Assembly (NCBI GenBank): GCA_951406725.2 | Contig: OX597817.1 | Span: 65,844,001-65,908,000, forward strand | DNA length: 64,000 nt | Direction of reading: 5' to 3' | Source: Octopus vulgaris | Lineage: Eukaryota | In this document: one piece after another, positions 6,531 to 31,018 of the stretch | Layout: the number at the start of each line of letters is the position of its first letter | Numbering within the stretch: position 1 is the stretch's first letter | Position numbers and translations under genes: made by a program | Notes under the pieces: model-generated | Database searches by the model: none | What the model was told of the DNA's origin: nothing | What the model saw: only the letters and a program-made list of their open reading frames with translations

Positions 6531-6535
<5 letters not shown>

Positions 6536-6748
6536 AATTAAGGACTGAACACGAAAAAGTGGACAGTCAACATGCTAGATATAGACGTCAAATCGCCATT
6601 CTCCACAAAAAGTCTATGTTCTCAGATCAAACTCAACACAAAAGTTTGATCTGAGAACATAGACTTTTGTGGAGAATGGCGATTTGACGTCTATATCTAG
6701 CATGTTGACTGTCCACTTTTTCGTGTTCAGTCCTTAATTGGTATATAT
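6531..6748. repeat. Near-perfect palindrome (arms about 103 bp, 9-nt loop)
   Basis: 6531-6633 versus 6643-6748 differ by one A in a homopolymer run; loop is CAACACAAA. Confidence 0.95.
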
Positions 6749-7899: not shown

Positions 7900-10567
7900 T
7901 AAAAGTGTCATTTGTGGTCGATGCATTCAAAAGGGGTTTATATTTTGTGATAAAATATGACTCTTTATTAATACACTGAGTACAGGTTGCATCGTCCCTG
8001 AATTTATAGAGGGGAAGATTCTGAAGCTGGGTTGTTTGTTATTGGCACAAATATCGATGTGTTCGCTGAATGCTATTTCCCTGTATTCCCGAATTTTGAT
8101 CTGGGATCTATCTAGAGCCATCCTTTGACGTAGAGTGTTTTTAGTTTGGCCTATGTAATGCTCTCAACACCCAGAGCAAGTTAATGCCTATGTTAGGTTC
8201 TCCGAAGCACACGTGAAGTTGCTTTCCACTGTAAAACGTTGATCCTGTTTGAAGGAGAACTCCAGTCCCTCAATTAGGTTGACGCATATACCACAGTTAG
8301 GTCTTCCGCATATTTATACTGATGATGGCTTCAGTGTTGTTGTCGAGCGTACTTGGGCTTGACTTTTCATAGATTTGGGTTGTCTTTTGCTCTTTGTGAT
8401 GGTGTGCATTTGGAAGTTTAAATTCATTCTGTAGTCCCTTTTTAGTAGGGGAATGTTCTGGAGGATGAGGTCGAAGGCTTCATTGTTAAAAGGGTTGTGT
8501 GTGGAGATGTATGATAGGGCTTTCGGTTGTAAATCCTTCTTTAATTTGGGATGCCTGAGTTTGTGATGTTGAATTGTAGGGCACGTTGAAAGCCTATATT
8601 AGTTAGTGATGGAGGGTAGTTCCTGGTAATGAGTGTATCCTTTAGTTCATGTAGTTGTGTGTCCCTGGTGCTTGTATTAGAAAATATCGTACAAATCCTT
8701 TTTGACAGCTTGAAAAGGATATTCATTCTAGTGTATCTGTTTCTATTTCGTTGTCAGATTTCTTAATGAGGATGTTAAGGAATGGAAGTTGTTGATGGCT
8801 ATATTCTATCGTAACTTGAATGTTTACGTCAAGTTCATTTATAAGTGCTTAAAATTCTTTAAGTCTCTCAATACTTTCAGGCCAAAGAATCAAACAGTCA
8901 TCCAGATACCTCTTCCAGTTAATTTTCTATGTAGAGTGAGAATGTGTTGCCGTATTTTTCTAGTACCTTACGATACAGACTGATTTCTAGATATCCCATG
9001 ACTAGGTTAGCAAAGGAAGGAGCCATTCTCGTACCCATCGCAGTCCCCGATTTTTGTAGATAGAAGTTGTCTTTGAAGACAAAGTAGTTATTCTCCAAGA
9101 TGAATTTTAGCCCTTCTGTTATGAATTCTTTTTTGATGCGATGTGGGAGTTCGTTGGATTAATTCTCTAGCCAGAATTAAATTGCCTCTATTCCTAGGCT
9201 GTTGGGGATATTAGAATAAAGGTTAACTACATCGAAAGATACTAGTAGGGTGTTTTTGCTTATTGTTTTAGGGAAGTGATTGAGCATATCTAGGTCGTCT
9301 TTTATATAGCTTTTGACATATTTGAGGAATGGTTTTAAGAGGGTATCTAAAAGGCGGTGGGTTTCGCATGCGGGACCTGCTATTATAGGTCTTAATTTGA
9401 GGTCATTAGGTGTAGGGACCTTGATTATTACGTCTGTGGCAGGGTCAACGTTACTTAGTTTGTCACTTTTGTGTAACTTAGAAATACCATAAAATTGACT
9501 GGATTTACTTTTGAAGTTGGTCATATAATCGTATTCCTTGTCGGTGAGCCATTCTCTGTATAGGCTTAACATGGATTTTAAGTTTCTCATTATTTTCTGC
9601 TGACAGTAGTGTTGGACCTTTTCATAATATGTTGTGTCTTCTAATATGGGTAGTACTAGAGTTATATAGTATACCATGTCTCTTAAGACAACTGCACTTT
9701 TTTTATCAGCCACTTTGATTGTTATTGTTTTATCATCATTTAATTTGTTCAGCTCAGCCCATTCTTTTTTGCTGAAGTTTGGCTTGTGCTTTTGTTTGGA
9801 TATATGTTGATGTGGGTAATTCGAGATGTATTCACAGAAATGGTTAAAAAGTTTTGTTCTTACCTTTTGAAGGGGTGTAGTTACTTCTATTTTGGACTAA
9901 CGATTCGTCCTCGTTGTATTTGTCGTATAGTTTCCCAGCGAGTCGTAATTTTCTACAGAATTCCGCGACGTCTTCTTTCATTATGTTGTAGATGGGGCGT
10001 TGTGTAAACTTGAGCCCTTTGGAAAGCATGTTGATTTGGTTTGCTGTTAGTTCTTTGTGAGTTAGATTGACGATTTTTATCACTTTTGGTTTTTCCTGTC
10101 TGTTTGGTGCTATCTCGTATCTCTGTGTTTGCGTATTGTGTCTAAAAAATGATTGAGGTGATTGGGACGTAGCTACTATGTAGTTGCTCCTTGTCGTTAT
10201 GGAGTGCCCTGTTGTGATTTATGTTGCGGATTCTTGGAAGGGTATTGAAAGGTGTGTCTCTACATTCCCTGTTCGAATGTGGTGTTTTATGGGGCCGTCG
10301 TTGGTAATTATTACGTGTGGTATGGGTTTGTTGTGCGTGGTTGTTTAGTCGATTGTTAGAACGAAAATTTTGTTGGTAACTCCTTATATGGGCAGGCTGC
10401 AATGTCTCTCCTGTGGGCAGTGATTTTTCATTTCTCTGTTTGATGTTGAGGTACTCCCGATGTTGTTTCGCTGGTTGGCTACAAAGTTAGGGTTAGGTCT
10501 TGTATTCTTTTTTTTTTTGGTAGGGTGATGGTTGTTTTTTAAGATAGGTGTGAATCTGTTTGAATGT

Positions 10568-10568: not shown

Positions 10569-10615
<47 letters not shown>

Positions 10616-13128: not shown

Positions 13129-13674
13129 CATACACACATACATACATATATACGTATATATATATATTTATATAACATATAATACAATATAAATAATATA
13201 TAAATATATATATGCATATATACATACATTTATGTACATACCTACATATATATGTGTATATACATGCATATATGGACACAGGACATCAAAAAAAAGTTAA
13301 ACACAATGAGAAACGAAAACATAAAAACAACATGGAAACGAACATTTTTTCGGACAACGAAAAAAAAACCAGAGAAAAGAGACATACAACATAAAGAATA
13401 TTCCCCTTCTTCAATTGTGCCTGTTTCAACTACTCCACGTTACGAAGGCAAAGACAAGACGCAACTTCGTTGAAACAGTCCTTCCCGCAAAGCAAATTAA
13501 ATAAATTTGGGATTTTTTGCGGAGGGTGAAAGTGGTAACAAGAACTGGACAATGAGAACAAAACAGTAAAAGCAATAAAAAAGTAAAAACAGTAAAAGAC
13601 AGAACCATGAGAACAAAACAGTAACAACAAACGATGAGGGCTGTTAAGTCAAGACGATGGAAAAATTTCTCATG

Positions 13675-13730
13675 CTCGTATCACCGTGATTTCGAACTTT
13701 GAGAAATACTCTTTGTTCATCTTCAGCGAG
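13675..13730 (-). ncRNA. Hammerhead ribozyme (type I, intact core)
   Basis: Minus strand CTCG-CTGAAGA-T-GAAC(aaaGAGtatttCTCaaa)GTTC-GAAA-TCAC-G-GTGA-TA-CGAG. All three stems pair; AUA cleavage triplet. Confidence 0.85.
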
Positions 13731-14528
13731 TCTTACTGCCCCCGAGAGTATAGAGTTTAATCATTTCAACCAATGTGTACGATGACCATTTTTAATATCG
13801 CAGCAAATTAAAAAAAGGTGATCAAAGTGAATAAAAATTATTTGAATATAAATGAGGATATTATTGTTTATAATAATATCAGTTGGTTAGCATGCGTCAA
13901 AACCCATAACGGTAAAAAAAAAATTATCAACTAATAATTACGGTATGTTTGACCTTTTTAATTTTCGATTATTTTCGTCATTGGTACAGGATTTTAGGAT
14001 GTTTATTCCTTTGCCCACTTTCACCTTTGTGTTTAAGAGAAAATTTATGGTTTGGTCATTTTGACAGCTATATTTAACATTCCGGTACTACCTGTTAGTA
14101 CTCTTAATTATTACTTGATGATTTTTACTATTGTGGGTTTTTTAGGCATATTAAACCACTGATATTATTATAAACAACAATATCCTCATATATATCTAAA
14201 TAGTTTTTATTCTCTTCGATCACCTTTTTTAAATTAACTGCGGCATTAAAAACGGTCATCATGCACATTGGTTGAGATGAATAAACTCTATAACCCTGGA
14301 GTCAGTAAGACTCGCTGAAGATGAACTAAGAGTATTTCTCAAAATTTGAAATCATGGCGATACTTCTGACGTCTTCAATTTTCGATTATTTTCGTCATTG
14401 GTACGGAGTCTTAGGATTTTTATTCATTTTCCCACTTTCAGCATTGTGTTTAAGCGAAAACTTGTTTGGTCATTTTGACTACTATATTTAAACATTCCGG
14501 TACTGCTTGTTAGTACTCTTAATTATTA

Positions 14529-14529
<1 letters not shown>
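13675..14529. mobile_element. Non-coding inverted plus partial-tandem unit (A'-B-A-B), PLE pLTR-like
   Basis: 13678-13940 is inverted to 14104-14363; 13945-14112 is directly repeated at 14365-14529; ends at (TA)n. Confidence 0.8.
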
Positions 14530-14582
<53 letters not shown>

Positions 14583-21212: not shown

Positions 21213-22086
21213 ACGTATGTATGTAGTAATCAGATGACGATTCATTCCGCTTATATCTTCAAGCTTCACGCGTTCTTTTAGCCAATAGAATATTAACTAC
21301 TCTCTAAACGAAAAGTATGTATGTATATATATATACATATATACAGACGCGCGCACACACACACACATACACACACACATATATACTCTACCTCCGGTAT
21401 TTGAGTACTCTTTTTCCACCTTGTTTCACATTTATGTGCTTACTCTGGCATGTGTGTGTGTGTAATCGATATTTTCTCTGTATCATCATTATGACATTTT
21501 GCCAGAGTAACAGAAAGGAAAGAAGGAGTTTAAAGTAGACAAAACTCTGTAGAAATTAGGGAAGAAGATGGATAAAGTGGGAAGACGATGACTGAGTTGA
21601 CATTTTGTGATTTTAAGCAAATTCTAAAGATTTCACTAAAATTCTAATGCTAAGTTCAGTCGATTTTGCTAGACGCAATATAAAATCAAAAAGGAAAACT
21701 TCAATCATTACTAATTGTGACTGAGGGTGCGGAAGTGTCTATATTGCACGATTGTCATGGTTTCGCATTTAGCACCAAAAACACACTTGATTCTCCTCAA
21801 TCAAGTCTACTAGTGACTTTCAACCAATGCCTGTGTTCGTTTCGGTGCCCAAGCTGCACTGAGAAAAACGAATCAAGTGAATACAATTTGTTTTACAAAA
21901 ATAAGTAAAGAACATTAATACTCATAAGATCTATTAAAGTGGCCACAAGCTAAAACCGTACAGGCAAAATAGAAATATATAAAAGAAATATATGTAGTAA
22001 GGGCGAATTTTTAAAGACACCAGGACGCCATGATAGATCGTTAGCTACTACACGTATTTTTTTCTCTCCTTGTTTTTTTCTGTGTA

Positions 22087-22124
22087 TCTTTCTGTCGAAG
22101 AGCGTAGGCTCGAAACGTAAAAGA
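22087..22124 (+). ncRNA. Minimal hammerhead motif (A6U variant)
   Basis: TCTTT-CTGTCGA-A-GAGC-GTAG-GCTC-GAAACGTA-AAAGA; 5-bp stem I. Confidence 0.6.
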
Positions 22125-22224
22125 CTTTTTCTATTCTTGAGCGCTATACTAATACATTTGTTTGTTTGTACTCCACCTGCCTTCGTCCTTTGTTTATTTT
22201 CGTAAACTTTCCCTTTATATATAT

Positions 22225-22490
22225 ATATAATATAAATATATGCATATATACATACAAATATGTACATACTTACATATATATGTATATATAGATGCATATA
22301 TGGGTACAGGACATCAAAAAACGTTGAACACAATGAGAAACGAAACATTTTGTTTTTATGTTTTCGTTTCTCATTGTGTTCAACGTTTCTTTTGATGTCC
22401 TGTACCCATATATGCATGTATATATACATATATATGTAGATATGTACATATATGTATGTTTTTATATGCATATATTTATATATTATTTAT
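22225..22490. repeat. Fold-back palindrome (arms about 120 bp)
   Basis: ATGCATATATGGGTACAGGACATCAAAA..CGTTGAACACAATGAGAAACGAAA versus its reverse complement from about 22358. The arm is homologous to 13210-13330. Confidence 0.9.
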
Positions 22491-22532
22491 ATTATTATAT
22501 GATCGAACACCACGCATCCTTTTCCAAGTAAG

Positions 22533-22581
<49 letters not shown>

Positions 22582-22617
22582 TAATTGAGATTCTCTTGGG
22601 AATTCTCTGATATTTTT

Positions 22618-22701
22618 TCGGCTGACGAGTACGAGCCATCTGTATTCACTGCATTTTTTGTAGCTTATTAAAGATGTCCTCGTACGAAACGATCGTACCG
22701 A
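22618..22701 (+). ncRNA. Hammerhead ribozyme (type I, fully canonical)
   Basis: TCGG-CTGACGA-GTACGAG...CTCGTAC-GAAA-CGATCG-TA-CCGA. 7-bp stem II, palindromic stem III ACGATCGT, predicted cleavage after A22697. Confidence 0.92.
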
Positions 22702-22726
22702 GATTTTAATCCATTCTTGTTGCTTT

Positions 22727-22769
<43 letters not shown>

Positions 22770-22784
22770 CAGAGGCTGTAGTAG

Positions 22785-22862
22785 AAGACACTTGGCCAAG
22801 TTGTCGCGCAATGAGACTGAACCATGTGGTTGGAAAGCAAGCTTCTTACCACACAGCCACGC
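22785..22862 (-). mobile_element. SINE family A head fragment
   Basis: AGAAGACACTTG..ACTGAACC..ATGTGGTTGG..AAGCAAGCTTCTTACCACACAGCCAC. Confidence 0.7.
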
Positions 22863-25800
22863 TGTTTCTGTTTTACAATCTAAGTCTCGCACAATGTGTC
22901 CGTCAGTAGCAGCAGTGTCAACAATAATACCTACACTACGCCGCTACCATCACCACTATCAGCATAGAAAGCAACACTCTTGCCACTAGCACAATGCTAT
23001 TTCGTTCGAACTCGTTAGCAAAAAAGAGGCCTTTAGGCAAAGGCACAAAGTTGCATTGTTTACGACCTTGAATACTTTCATTGCCAGAGGCAATACGAAA
23101 GAAACAAAAAGATCAATACAGATAAATTCTTTGCAGATTTGAAAATAGGGGGGGGGGGGAGTCGACAACTCCAATGTAGGACAAATGTACCTAAACAGCG
23201 TATACAAAGGGAGAAAATATGGGACAGAAGTGACTTTGAGCGTTATAAAGATAAAACCAAGACGTTTTCAATCATCGTAAGCTTCTTCAATGTTTACCCT
23301 TAAGGTTACATGGGGCAGTAAGCGACAAAGTTTCGAATTATATGTAATAATGTTGAAAGAGTATGAAGAGATTCTCAAATTCAAACCTGAACTGGCCGGA
23401 AGCTCAGATGTCATCCTAGCGAATTTCTTGAAAATCCTTAGGGTGGGGGAGTCAAATGAGAGTTATGTCAAAACAAACTCAGGCATGCAGTTATGTTTCT
23501 TCCCTTCGTTTCTTCCAATATTTCTCCTTCTGATTCTTCATCAAGAAAGAAAAAAAGTCATGTCAAGAAGTTATCCTGGAGGCCACGAAGTAGACGAAAA
23601 CCAATGATGTTACAAGAAGGCTTGAGTAGACATCAAAGAACTCGCTACCCACCATCACAACAATGTAATAAAGCAATAATGTTCACAAGAACTAAAACTA
23701 TAACCATAACAGCAAAACCTACAAGCCCAACTATTACAACAAAATACAGTGAAGGTCTAAATCAATGTTTCTGAAGGTGAGTGTGGCAATATTTTGGTGG
23801 GGCGTGGATTACTTCAAAATGAAGCAAGAGAATAAAACTAGCAATAAAGTTTTAATTAAAACTTCCTTTTAATGTAGATAGCTTATATATTAACTGTTTT
23901 TATGGTGAGGCACACGTTTCTGCCTTTCTTTTCTTCTTTAAATCAAAATTTGGCGTAGAACTAAAACGGGTAAGAAACCAGGACCTAAATATTTGATTAA
24001 TTACTGTTAATACGACTGAATTTTCTAATTATTAACCTCATCTTTTACGGGTTTATTTACATTCTTGAGTTATAAACTTCATCAGTTGGTTGGTTAAATA
24101 ACACTACCTGGTCCTTGATGCCTTAAGCGGGGTTCACTTTTTTGCAAGCATTTGGATCAGCCCTTTCCTTCACCAATTACAGAGACGTTTCTTTTCTTTC
24201 TGACTGAGCTACAGAAAGAGTAAAATTCATATCTGCACAGTTATTTCGATAAGTAGAATCTCCTACGTATCGTATTCCTTAATTCTATACTGCTATATGC
24301 ATTTCCTTCTCGTACCATATATATTCAACCTTTTATTAAGAGCATTTGATATTTTCAGATAACTGAGAAACACATTCGAAACGAAAGGTTAATGGAGCAG
24401 GTACCTAGAACTCTCACTAATTCTCTTCCAACTAGTAAATTCAGCAATGGCATTAGTTTAATATAGCTGCTTTTACTAACAAATAAATCTTGCAACAAAT
24501 AAATCGTACGTGCGTCAGTGGCTTAGGGGATAAGGACATTACTACTAATTGGCCTGAAAATAAAGGTTTCTAATTTCAGGCCAAACAGGGGCTATATCTG
24601 GAATAATTCAACTGATGAAGATCTGAAATTGAGTCAACAGCGTGTAAATATACAATCTAAAGATAAGATTTTGTTGCCCTTGCTTAATATCAGTTCATCT
24701 GGGATTGACGAGATCTCTGATGTTCCAACTGTGACTATTCTGGCATCTTTTCAGGCAGTATGTCTTTTGGACTACTTTACCGAGTGTATCGTTCTATAGG
24801 TATGAATCGAGGAATATTTGACTGATATTTCAATTATATTCGAGTAACCATTGAGTAGCTCCGTGCTGGCTTGCAAAAAAGGTGAAATTAAAGTATTTCA
24901 ACAAGTGAATTACTTGTACAACATCTTCCATTCCAGATATTAGCTGGAATCTTCACATCAACAGATATTTTAAGAAAACAATGGAGACAAAAATATTTTA
25001 TTCAATATAACTCACCATGCTGGTTGAAAGTCGCGCCGCGTAATCCTCTGCAGTATTTAGCAACGCCTCTGTATGGTCTTAGTTCAAATTTTGCCAGGAT
25101 CAATTTTTCTATCATGTGATCAATAAAATAAGGATAGTAAAATCAAATAAAAATGTTGCCTTTTTTACTGAGACATTTGTAAGTAGATTATCTATGCATA
25201 CCCACAAATGTCAGGTTTTCAATAGTGAATGAAAACTTTTTGTAAGTAGTTCGTTTATTCAAATATTTCCATTTCAGAGAAAAACAGCCCTCTTCATATT
25301 CTCCTGTTGGTGACACAAATGTTATCAGCTAAAATATCTTTTGGCCGCTCGGTTGTGGACAGAATTTCGCTCTTTTTATCGAAAAACATATAACTGGACA
25401 ATTACTACGAGATGTCACTTTCTAAATAAATTTGCACGAAAGTGAAGGTTTGTAGACTTTAGATTTCAACCGAGCTATAAACTCCTTCGAGGTATAAATG
25501 CTTCAGTATTAAGGCTTATTGTCGTGTGATTTTATCCCGTCTATGACCATCTTCCACATATATCTCTATGATCATCAATACAGAATAACACAATTATGTG
25601 AAAGCTATTCACTGATAGCAGTTCAGGCTTTAAAAAAGACACAACAGTCAGAGAAAGTCCATTTTTTTATTAACTACGCTGCTGACATATCCGATCCTCT
25701 TCCGGATGCAATTACTCGAATGTAAGGCCTTGCTGTTCCAAGACTATAGCTTATCTGTTGACTTCTTCCAGATAAAATTGCTTAAATATCAAAGCTACCT

Positions 25801-28435: not shown

Positions 28436-30204
28436 ATTATGAGTGGTATAAAGGCAAATACCACAATATCATTCTTAAAGGTGATAAGCTAGTTGATACC
28501 AGAATATAATTATTTTGGGTGACAAGGCAGTAGATAACAGAATCAGACAAAATGTATTGTGATGTTAAGATACGGCGCTAAAATCTATAGCTCTATGATG
28601 GTTAAAGTACCAGTAATATGCTGTTGAAGATTTAATCGACACTTCACTTCCTTTGTATTTGTGTCTTTGTACCACTGTTAAAAATCCTAGCTGAAGGTGA
28701 TAGCTCTATGGTTAGCAGAATGGGAAGAGTAACAGACAAAATAATTGCCGTATTTACGTTACATTTCTTTGCATTCCGAGTTTAAACTATATCGCAAATG
28801 AGTTTCCCTTCTTTTCTAGAGATCGGTAAAATTCTTTCTAATTTTGGCACAAAGCCAGCAATTTTTAAAGGAAAGAGCAAGCCGATTACATTGACCACTG
28901 CTCAACCGGTCCTTTTTTTTTATCGATACCGGAAGAATGAAAAACGAAGTCGACCTCCGCGAAATTTGAACACAGAACTTAAGGAATCGAAAGAAATACC
29001 ACTAAGTCCGACATGTTAAAGAATTTGCCAGCTCGCCGTCTGGGATCGATAAATTAGTAACAGTTATATAGTGGTATGGATTATGTTGATAATGCATTTC
29101 CTTATAGTTTGTTGACTTTGTGTCAACATAAGCAATAAATGTTATTAGGAGAGCCACTAATACCTCCTCTTCCCTTTTCAAGACTGTAAGGAGTAATTTG
29201 GAACAGATTTGATTGCTATTTCTAGCAGGTCGAGACACTTTTAGGGAGTGCCCCTCGGTAGGTTATTTGTGCGCGCGTGCGTGCATCGTTAAGCTTACAG
29301 TTGTTGTAGTCGTAGTTGTAAATATTCTTGTTATTACCGTAGATGTTTATTTAATGCATGGTAAACCCCAATCGAGCAGGTCTGTGAACAAAAAACGGTC
29401 ATCGTAATCCAGCCACGACCATCTCGTCTTTCTTAGTTATGTAGGACTACACTACCTAATATGTCATGTCTTAATCTAGAAAATTAGAGGGTAATTTAAG
29501 GGCGAAATGTTTAGCGGTATTTCGTCTGCCGTTACGTTGTCAGTTCAAATTCCGCCGAGGTCGACTTTGCCTTTCATCCTTTCGGAGTCGATTAAATTAA
29601 GTACCAGTTACGCACTGGGGTCGATGTAATCGACTTAATCCGTTTGTCTGTCCTTGTTTGTCCCCTCTGTGTTTAGCCCCTTATGGGTAGTAAAGAAATA
29701 GGTAATTTAAGGGAGATTCATTTTTTTATTTCAAGCAGATCAACTTACTATCTTGCCCTCATCCCTCACGTTAGCTCTTGTTATGTGTTACAGTATCAGC
29801 AGCCATAAATGCAGCAGCTGTTATAGCTGTGTTTGATGTTAATATTAGTGTTGCTGATGTTACAGTTATCATTTTTTTATCTTCTGATGTTACAGCTGTT
29901 AATGTCGTTATCGTTGTTGCTGTTTCTGTCGTGGTTACATTCCTATTATGTGCTGCTGTTACACCTGTTTATAGTGCTACTACTAATGTTACTGTCCTGT
30001 TATTGCTGCTGTTACACCTGTTAATGTTGCTGTTATTAATGTCACAATCCACTTATGTGCTGCTGTTACACCTGTTAATGTTGCTGTTGTTAATATTATA
30101 ATCCTCGTATGTGCTGCAGTTATACTTGTTACTCTTGTAATTAATGTTAAAGTCCTGTTATGTACTGCTGTTACTAATATAAATGTTATTGTTGTCGTTA
30201 TTAT

Positions 30205-30508
30205 TACAGTTTTGTCATATGCTAAGTTACACCTGTTAATGTTACAGTTTTGTCATATGCTATGTTACACCTGTTAATGTTACAGTTTTGTCATATGCTA
30301 TGTTACACCTGTTAATGTTACAGTTTTGTCATATGCTATGTTACACTTGTTAATGTTACAGTTTTGTCATATGCTATGTTACACCTGTTAATGTTACAGT
30401 TTTATCATGCTATGTTACACCTGTTAATGTTACAGTTTTGTCATATGCTATGTTACACCTGTTAATGTTACAGTTTTGTCATATGCTATGTTACACCTGT
30501 TAATGTTA
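30205..30508. repeat. 38-bp minisatellite, 8 units, within a degenerate halo (about 29830-30780)
   Basis: Unit TACAGTTTTGTCATATGCTATGTTACACCTGTTAATGT starts at 30205, 30243, 30281, 30319, 30357, 30395, 30431 and 30469. Confidence 0.95.
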
Positions 30509-31018
30509 CTGTTACTATTCTGGTATATGCCGCTGTTACACCTGTTAATGTTGTTGTTACAATCCTGCTATATGCTGCTGTTACACCTGTTAATGTTACT
30601 TTTGCTGTTGTTAATGTTACAGTCCTGCTATGTATTGCTATTACAAATATCAATGCTACTGTTGTTGCTATAGTTACAGTTCAGGTATATGCCGCTGTTA
30701 CACCTGTTAATGTTGCTGTTGGTAATGTTACAGTCCTGATATATACAGTTGTTACACCTGTTAATGCTTCGTTTCTATTAATGTTACATTCCTAATATGT
30801 GTGGCTGTTGCTGTTATTATTATTGTCACAACCTTGTTATGTGCTGCTGTTGTAATTAAAGTCTTCTTACCCATTAACACTTTTGTCACTGTTCCATTTG
30901 ATTAAGTTTCTCTTATTACTGTTAGTCATGTTACAATTGTTAATGTTGTTTGTTGTTAAAGTCATGCTATGCACCGATGATACAGCTCTACTGTTGTAGT
31001 TGTTGTTCTTCTTCTTCT

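Follow-up and report, generated by a model that had tools for sequence, protein, structure and literature searches.

We identified a type I hammerhead ribozyme motif in a short island between two TA microsatellites of Octopus vulgaris, and we propose that this island represents 139 bases from within a longer, highly repeated hammerhead-bearing element, likely 5'-truncated and likely placed in its TA microsatellite by a recent insertion that used the enzyme of a Penelope-like element (PLE); we put the probability of this reading at about 0.85. The window, by which we mean the whole 64,000-nt stretch analysed (contig OX597817.1 of assembly GCA_951406725.2, positions 65,844,001 to 65,908,000), consists of AT-rich animal DNA, and its tandem-repeat listing has 172 rows.

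When both strands were searched with a descriptor, no type I hammerhead in the window was stronger than that at 22622-22697 (+). The catalytic core CUGACGA (C3-A9) occupies 22622-22628, with no extra base ahead of G10.1, and is followed by the G10.1-C11.1 pair (22629/22685), the GAAA box (22686-22689) and a GUA ending in A17 (22695-22697), which sets the predicted cut at 22697/22698. All of these nucleotides, which lie on the + strand, had been reported by the first-pass annotation and were found where it had placed them. The elements of the type I core (CUGANGA, GAAA, NUH and G10.1-C11.1, with three helices and helix I open) are all present, and the identity of the motif as a type I hammerhead is confirmed at the level of sequence.

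The ribozyme accounts for 88 of the 152 nt of the island. Both the descriptor search and folding gave a helix I of 6 bp, including one U.G pair (22616-22621/22698-22703, +), which extends beyond the TCGG/CCGA stem described earlier. Helix II (22629-22685, +) consists of a proximal part of 7 bp (22629-22635/22679-22685; pair probabilities 0.92-1.0 in folding), a 1x2 internal loop, the 5-bp extension CATCT/AGATG (22637-22641/22672-22676), a large internal loop and a 5-bp terminal hairpin. The earlier description of stem II, of its extension and of the palindrome ACGATCGT (22689-22696, +) was borne out. This palindrome forms helix III, which within one molecule is limited to 2 bp and a GAUC loop, as the full 8 bp needs two molecules; with this short helix and a core that is predicted to pair with the palindrome, the ribozyme does not deserve the label "perfect" that it had been given. 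By eye, we also noted a possible pairing of 22668-22674 with 22704-22710.

The motif is rare in randomized sequence: 300 block-wise dinucleotide shuffles of the window yielded no type I motif whose helices reached 6, 7 and 3 bp and, in 7 of the 300, a loose version (4, 4 and 2 bp). No Rfam hammerhead match reached the gathering score anywhere in the window, and a permissive listing for 21500-23500 (60 matches at E<=10) contained none either; the 57-nt length of helix II is the probable reason. The Rfam miRNA matches, which fell on the hairpin at 22292-22417 and on TA runs, were dismissed as chance.

The island lies between a (TA)23 microsatellite (22534-22579), seen in the sequence and in the tandem-repeat listing, and a 38-nt AT run (22731-22768), an (AT)n microsatellite whose first bases overlap the end of the element; the two borders are as previously annotated. 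The (TA)23 on the left is likely part of the insertion target, and a target-site duplication is unreadable within (TA)n. Contig alignments define the body of the copy as the 139 nt at 22596-22734 (+; GC 36.7%), a 5'-truncated piece of a longer high-copy element, in which 22698-22734 (+) holds the 3' strand of helix I and the 37-nt stretch up to the common 3' end of the copies (22729-22734). Ahead of the body are 16 nt of filler foreign to the parent (22580-22595), the last 9 nt of which look like 22598-22607 in inverted form (8 of 10, judged by eye); the fold pairs the two, and the filler may be a tiny snap-back at the 5' junction. Neither a second copy of the island nor the flanks of its parent were found elsewhere in the 64-kb window.

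To find relatives of the island, we checked 12 sampled words against public sequencing runs. Among the 24 runs listed, 20 contained 75-83% of these words, under three organism labels and from 10 studies; none of the 20 is labelled RNA, and 13 of them are guessed to be RNA. The filler would touch about 16 of the 122 words, a proportion that would fit the absence of 2 of the 12 words from every run. We then aligned 22566-22746 to the contigs of four runs (X4, X5, X6 and X10), and obtained 475 aligned contigs in X4, 344 in X6, and 2 and 11 in the two smaller runs. The whole body, 22596-22734, was matched with one difference each by a 331-nt contig of X5 (record 18) and a 204-nt contig of X10 (record 1), which come from runs with different organism labels.

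These contigs do not stop where the island does. Upstream of 22596, the same 30 letters, which are not those of the window, occur in X5, X10 and X6, related letters follow the body downstream in X5, X6 and X10, and record 18 extends 119 nt upstream and 73 nt downstream of the matched body. The flanks of the parent beyond the body, known from 30-letter loose ends, are non-TA sequence common to the contigs. Because records 1 and 18 continue into these common letters, the parent must extend past the island on either side, and because the long contigs leave the window sequence at 22596, we regard 22580-22595 as filler. In 22587-22593, there is no cover in X5 and X10, and the summed depth is low in X4 and X6 (37 and 119). 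The earlier description implied that the island is a unit in itself, a reading at odds with a parent that passes both of its ends and with 16 nt of non-parent sequence inside its borders.

Among the 26 distinct records listed (there were 842 others), 12 run into the TA flank, to 22739 or beyond, a count to be read with the TA flanks of the query in mind, as these favour TA-ending records; eight end at 22728-22734, five end earlier and one is TA only. PLE insertions may have two alternative 3' ends set apart by an optional tail of 30-40 bp; in the aligned stretch, the 3' ends of the copies form one cluster, at 22729-22734. Records 24 and 25 (1038 and 528 nt) pass from TA into other DNA for hundreds of bases. 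At the 5' side, record 20 (737 nt) departs from the window sequence at 22613, and loose ends with varied letters occur at 22682, 22707, 22709 and 22712, one of them starting with a TA run. The first-pass annotation had proposed a check of copy number and of conserved boundaries: the contigs point to a repeated family with a common 3' end, and the 5' boundary is not conserved. Helix I is predicted to extend further outward (22598-22603 with 22713-22718), and the copy in the window starts 2 nt ahead of the outer edge of this extension; the departure of record 20 is near the inner edge of helix I. The 5' ends possibly favour helix I edges, for which these few records are too few as a test.

Summed contig depth, which is not a copy number and includes edge effects, peaks at 22713-22726 (521,000 in X4 and 222,000 in X6), as compared with 68,000 (X4) and 109,000-121,000 (X6) at 22615-22628, a ratio of about 7.6 in X4 and about 1.8-2 in X6; long single records have a depth of about 37-56. 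We read this profile solely as many copies, in which 3' ends outnumber cores. No backward joint and no record fitting two places occurred among the listed records, the longest spanning record being just 331 nt. Among metagenome and viral contigs, the exact 3'-half motif had no match. Two metagenome loci fitted a gapped core pattern, neither of which resembles the island family by eye; metagenome contig L002 has a hammerhead-like core at 486-550 with the ends of helix II paired.

The state of the copy bears on its age. The intact CpG-rich stems had earlier been taken to suggest recent insertion or selection. The single difference in 139 bases from long contigs of two runs with different organism labels agrees with the former, and the same difference makes selection unnecessary as an explanation of the intact stems. 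The body has 8 CpG dinucleotides, as compared with a window median of 2 for stretches of this size, yet 171 of 3194 such stretches have at least 8; the intact CpGs would reflect the youth of the copy.

To ask how the ribozyme would behave as an RNA, we predicted its folding with ViennaRNA, a nearest-neighbour method that leaves out tertiary contacts and Mg2+. At all four lengths tried, the active monomer fold had a probability of 0.0002-0.0004, and it lies 4.4 kcal/mol above the best fold. This best fold is a locked one: the ACGA stretch in the core is bound to UCGU in the palindrome, with a probability of 0.41-0.84. Two copies of a 99-nt core were predicted to co-fold as a double hammerhead with an 8-bp helix III (palindrome pairs at 0.87-0.94), a weak dimer with an estimated Kd of about 2e-4 M, and in a context of 139 or 155 nt, intermolecular pairing of the palindrome fell to 0.04-0.08 as other pairings won. 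The lone ribozyme is thus predicted to cut itself poorly and to need a dimer or the help of a protein. Since the monomer is predicted to misfold, the cleavage of a passing transcript, which had been suggested earlier, would be weak, though possible in principle. Lunse et al. reportedly described dimer cleavage of small PLE hammerheads. Metazoan type I motifs are, as a rule, weak as monomers and active as dimers (PMC4209133; PMC7229834).

All four variants listed leave the core untouched. With C22694T, found in three of the four runs, the palindrome still pairs with itself through G.U (-5.8 versus -10.0 kcal/mol); ACAATTGT, found in a loose end shared by four contigs, is again a perfect palindrome (-6.4 kcal/mol); and G22702A turns the U.G pair of helix I into U-A. 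The variants fit the structure, which lends it weak support, as there are just four. Because the palindrome variants are also plain CpG transitions, they are no proof of structural selection.

The arrangement of the copies resembles that expected of PLE-type insertion: 5' truncation varies and the 3' end is common, the cut site is 33-37 nt from that end, the 3' end is internal to a longer parent, and a bias for (TA)n is seen in 12 of the 26 listed records. PLEs are known for 5' truncation, a bias for microsatellites and hammerheads in their pseudo-LTRs (PMC8557442), and they make up 6.83% of the Octopus vulgaris assembly (PMC13282606). The Poseidon PLE begins reverse transcription at an internal site of its RNA, beyond the 3' side of the hammerhead, with uncut RNA as the main template, and its ribozyme cleaved only in the presence of protein (PMC11167929). 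As a PLE copies uncut RNA from a start downstream of its hammerhead (PMC11167929), a copy can span the cut site.

We therefore propose a model drawn from these precedents, in which a GIY-YIG endonuclease would nick (TA)n, the reverse transcriptase would start within the RNA about 33-37 nt past the ribozyme cut site, copying would run back through the uncut ribozyme and halt at 22596, and repair would add the 16-nt filler at the junction. The ribozyme would serve the processing of the parent's RNA; it is predicted to be locked as a monomer and to be released by protein or by pairing into a double hammerhead, which tandem transcripts would allow. The lone copy in the window is likely a passive passenger. 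We saw no ORF, tandem unit or pseudo-LTR of the island family, whose parent is visible as 30-letter loose ends, and no DNA similarity between the island and the decayed PLE of the window described below.

We considered three other accounts of the island. One is that the 152 nt make up an entire minimal mobile element and spread as such, which would suit the clean TA borders, the intact ribozyme and the common 3' end at about 22729-22734. However, 22580-22595 is foreign to the family, the long contigs continue on both sides with common letters, 5' ends differ among copies, and three T6 runs on the + strand (22613, 22654 and 22724) would stop Pol III. Records 1 and 18 in particular appear to refute this account largely, and we consider it very improbable. 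Just as improbable, in our judgement, is a cis-acting ribozyme kept by host selection to cleave an intron or a long transcript at this place, in the manner of the conserved intronic hammerheads of amniotes (mentioned in PMC7229834). The intact core bases and stems and the high CpG content would be in keeping with such a role, but a single difference from the long contigs of the family accounts for this intactness, relatives with decayed CpGs exist (the X4 loose end at 22707), and the monomer is predicted to be locked. Furthermore, of the 190 ORFs retained by filtering from 629 stop-to-stop frames of at least 45 aa, 150 were compared with Pfam; this gave two sub-threshold matches and no host exon.

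A mover other than a PLE, such as a LINE-driven SINE, the 3' end of a LINE or a TA-targeting DNA transposon, is somewhat less remote though still improbable. LINEs also leave 5'-truncated copies and microsatellite tails, and no PLE ORF is tied to the island family. Against such movers, the window has no tRNA gene, the T6 runs are internal, and the 3' end is inside a longer parent instead of at a poly(A) or repeat tail. We searched the island element for a terminal inverted repeat and a tRNA-like head, and both are absent; a tRNA-derived Pol III SINE was rejected with the zero tRNA genes of the window and the internal T6 runs. In addition, animal type I hammerheads accompany PLEs and retrozymes (PMC4209133, PMC7229834). 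We thus favour insertion by a PLE enzyme.

As for the class of the parent, the island can be compared with two known systems. With the pseudo-LTR hammerheads of EN+ PLEs (PMC4209133, PMC8557442, PMC11167929), it shares a type I fold, a palindromic helix III suited to dimers, mostly single truncated copies genome-wide, a 3' end downstream of the ribozyme and a microsatellite target; its 7-bp helix II is close to the 7-8 bp of Schistosoma PLE motifs. It differs from EN+ PLE hammerheads in a helix I of 6 bp rather than 4-5 bp, a 43-nt extension of helix II and the lack here of a family ORF. In contrast to PLE minimal motifs (PMC4209133), the island has no extra base between A9 and G10.1, which the motifs of the window at 22092 and 6207 do have. 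An assignment to the minimal PLE hammerhead, which as defined in PMC4209133 has an extra unpaired base, a helix I of 4-5 bp and hardly any loop 3, was rejected (no inserted base, a 6-bp helix I, a tetraloop present), as was one to the canonical loop-loop metazoan type I motif with a 6-bp helix I and a 4-bp helix II (the island has a 7-bp helix II with a long extension, and no Rfam match).

Animal non-LTR retrozymes are tandem repeats of 150-450 nt with one hammerhead per unit (PMC7229834; 10.64898/2026.07.22.740005). They are low in GC, do not code for protein and give abundant monomers of circular RNA. The island is like them in its 6-bp helix I, its 2-bp helix III with a palindromic tetraloop and its GC content below 50%, and dispersed solo copies and a proposed mobilization by PLEs are known for them as well (same sources). 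It is unlike them in that no tandem array lies at this place, has a helix II of 7 bp rather than the canonical 4 bp, and is a partial single copy. Three features, namely a helix I of 6 bp, a tetraloop-capped helix III of 2 bp and the lack of an extra base before G10.1, resemble retrozyme motifs and set the island apart from the minimal PLE motifs of the window. We lean slightly toward a short, non-coding retrozyme-type unit as the parent, at somewhat better than even odds, with an autonomous PLE whose pseudo-LTR is the island family only slightly less likely. A preprint argues that retrozymes derive from PLE pseudo-LTRs, often as solo copies (10.64898/2026.07.22.740005), and both readings of the parent therefore belong to one known class.

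We hold tentatively, and consider rather doubtful, the further idea that the parent belongs to an undescribed retrozyme family, active to this day in an octopus-like mollusc and producing circular RNA. The lock would keep monomer circles uncut for reverse transcription and would open only in multimers. If this were true, the many young copies, whose 3' ends lie at a fixed point some 35 nt beyond the cut, would be a natural map of where a Penelope enzyme starts and stops on a ribozyme template. PLE-end and retrozyme hammerheads are known in thousands of copies per animal genome, which makes one extra copy ordinary. The insertion ends of a young, abundant family could nevertheless show how far from the ribozyme a PLE begins to reverse-transcribe, and the weakness of such ribozymes could be examined through the predicted monomer lock. 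Our literature search, with subscription journals mostly outside it and repeat libraries excluded, found no description of a cephalopod hammerhead family like that of the island, and the searched text of an octopus repeat paper (PMC13282606) makes no mention of ribozymes.

The window contains other elements of related kinds. Three further hammerhead-bearing inserts, at 22092, 6207 and 13678-14530, end at TA runs. A five-way DNA alignment of the hammerheads of the window was uninformative, and the island is unlike the three other inserts in DNA; the hammerheads of the window are of different families. The motifs at 22092-22119 (+) and 6207-6181 (-) are minimal PLE-type hammerheads with an extra base before helix II, a 4-bp helix II and an ACGT palindrome. 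TA runs, at 22216 and 6072 respectively, follow some 100 nt downstream of them, and the motif at 22092 has a U at core position 6. The insert at 13678-14530 is a separate hammerhead family, with about 1.4 units of a 417-nt repeat, (TA)n at 14530 and an inverted partial copy ahead (arms 13678-13905 and 14136-14363, 85%). A complete type I motif survives in the inverted copy, at 13726-13679 (-), and the direct copy at about 14315-14362 is more decayed. This insert looks like a retrozyme-type PLE insertion.

At about 7930-10550 (-), we observed a decayed, near-full-length Penelope-like element with RT and GIY-YIG, the start of which adjoins (TA)n at 10570. A search with its RT piece (9180-9896) gave 70 matching proteins, some with mollusc names; many of them are about 730-760 aa long and carry both RT and GIY-YIG domains. 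The RT remnant alone had no RT match in Pfam and was identified through these homologs. By eye, a C-terminal cysteine motif and an endonuclease remnant suggest that this PLE is of the Neptune type. Two near-perfect long palindromes lie between TA-rich runs, at 22292-22417 (arms of 28 and 30 nt) and 6535-6740 (76 and 26 nt), and the former is a head-to-head pair of a repeat end that also occurs at 13271-13334. Both palindromes fit inverted, 5'-truncated PLE pairs. Just beyond the island, 22772-22860 is a piece of a SINE-like repeat with five further copies in the window, which we take to be a common octopus repeat, and a compound minisatellite with periods of 21-54 nt occupies 29934-30766.
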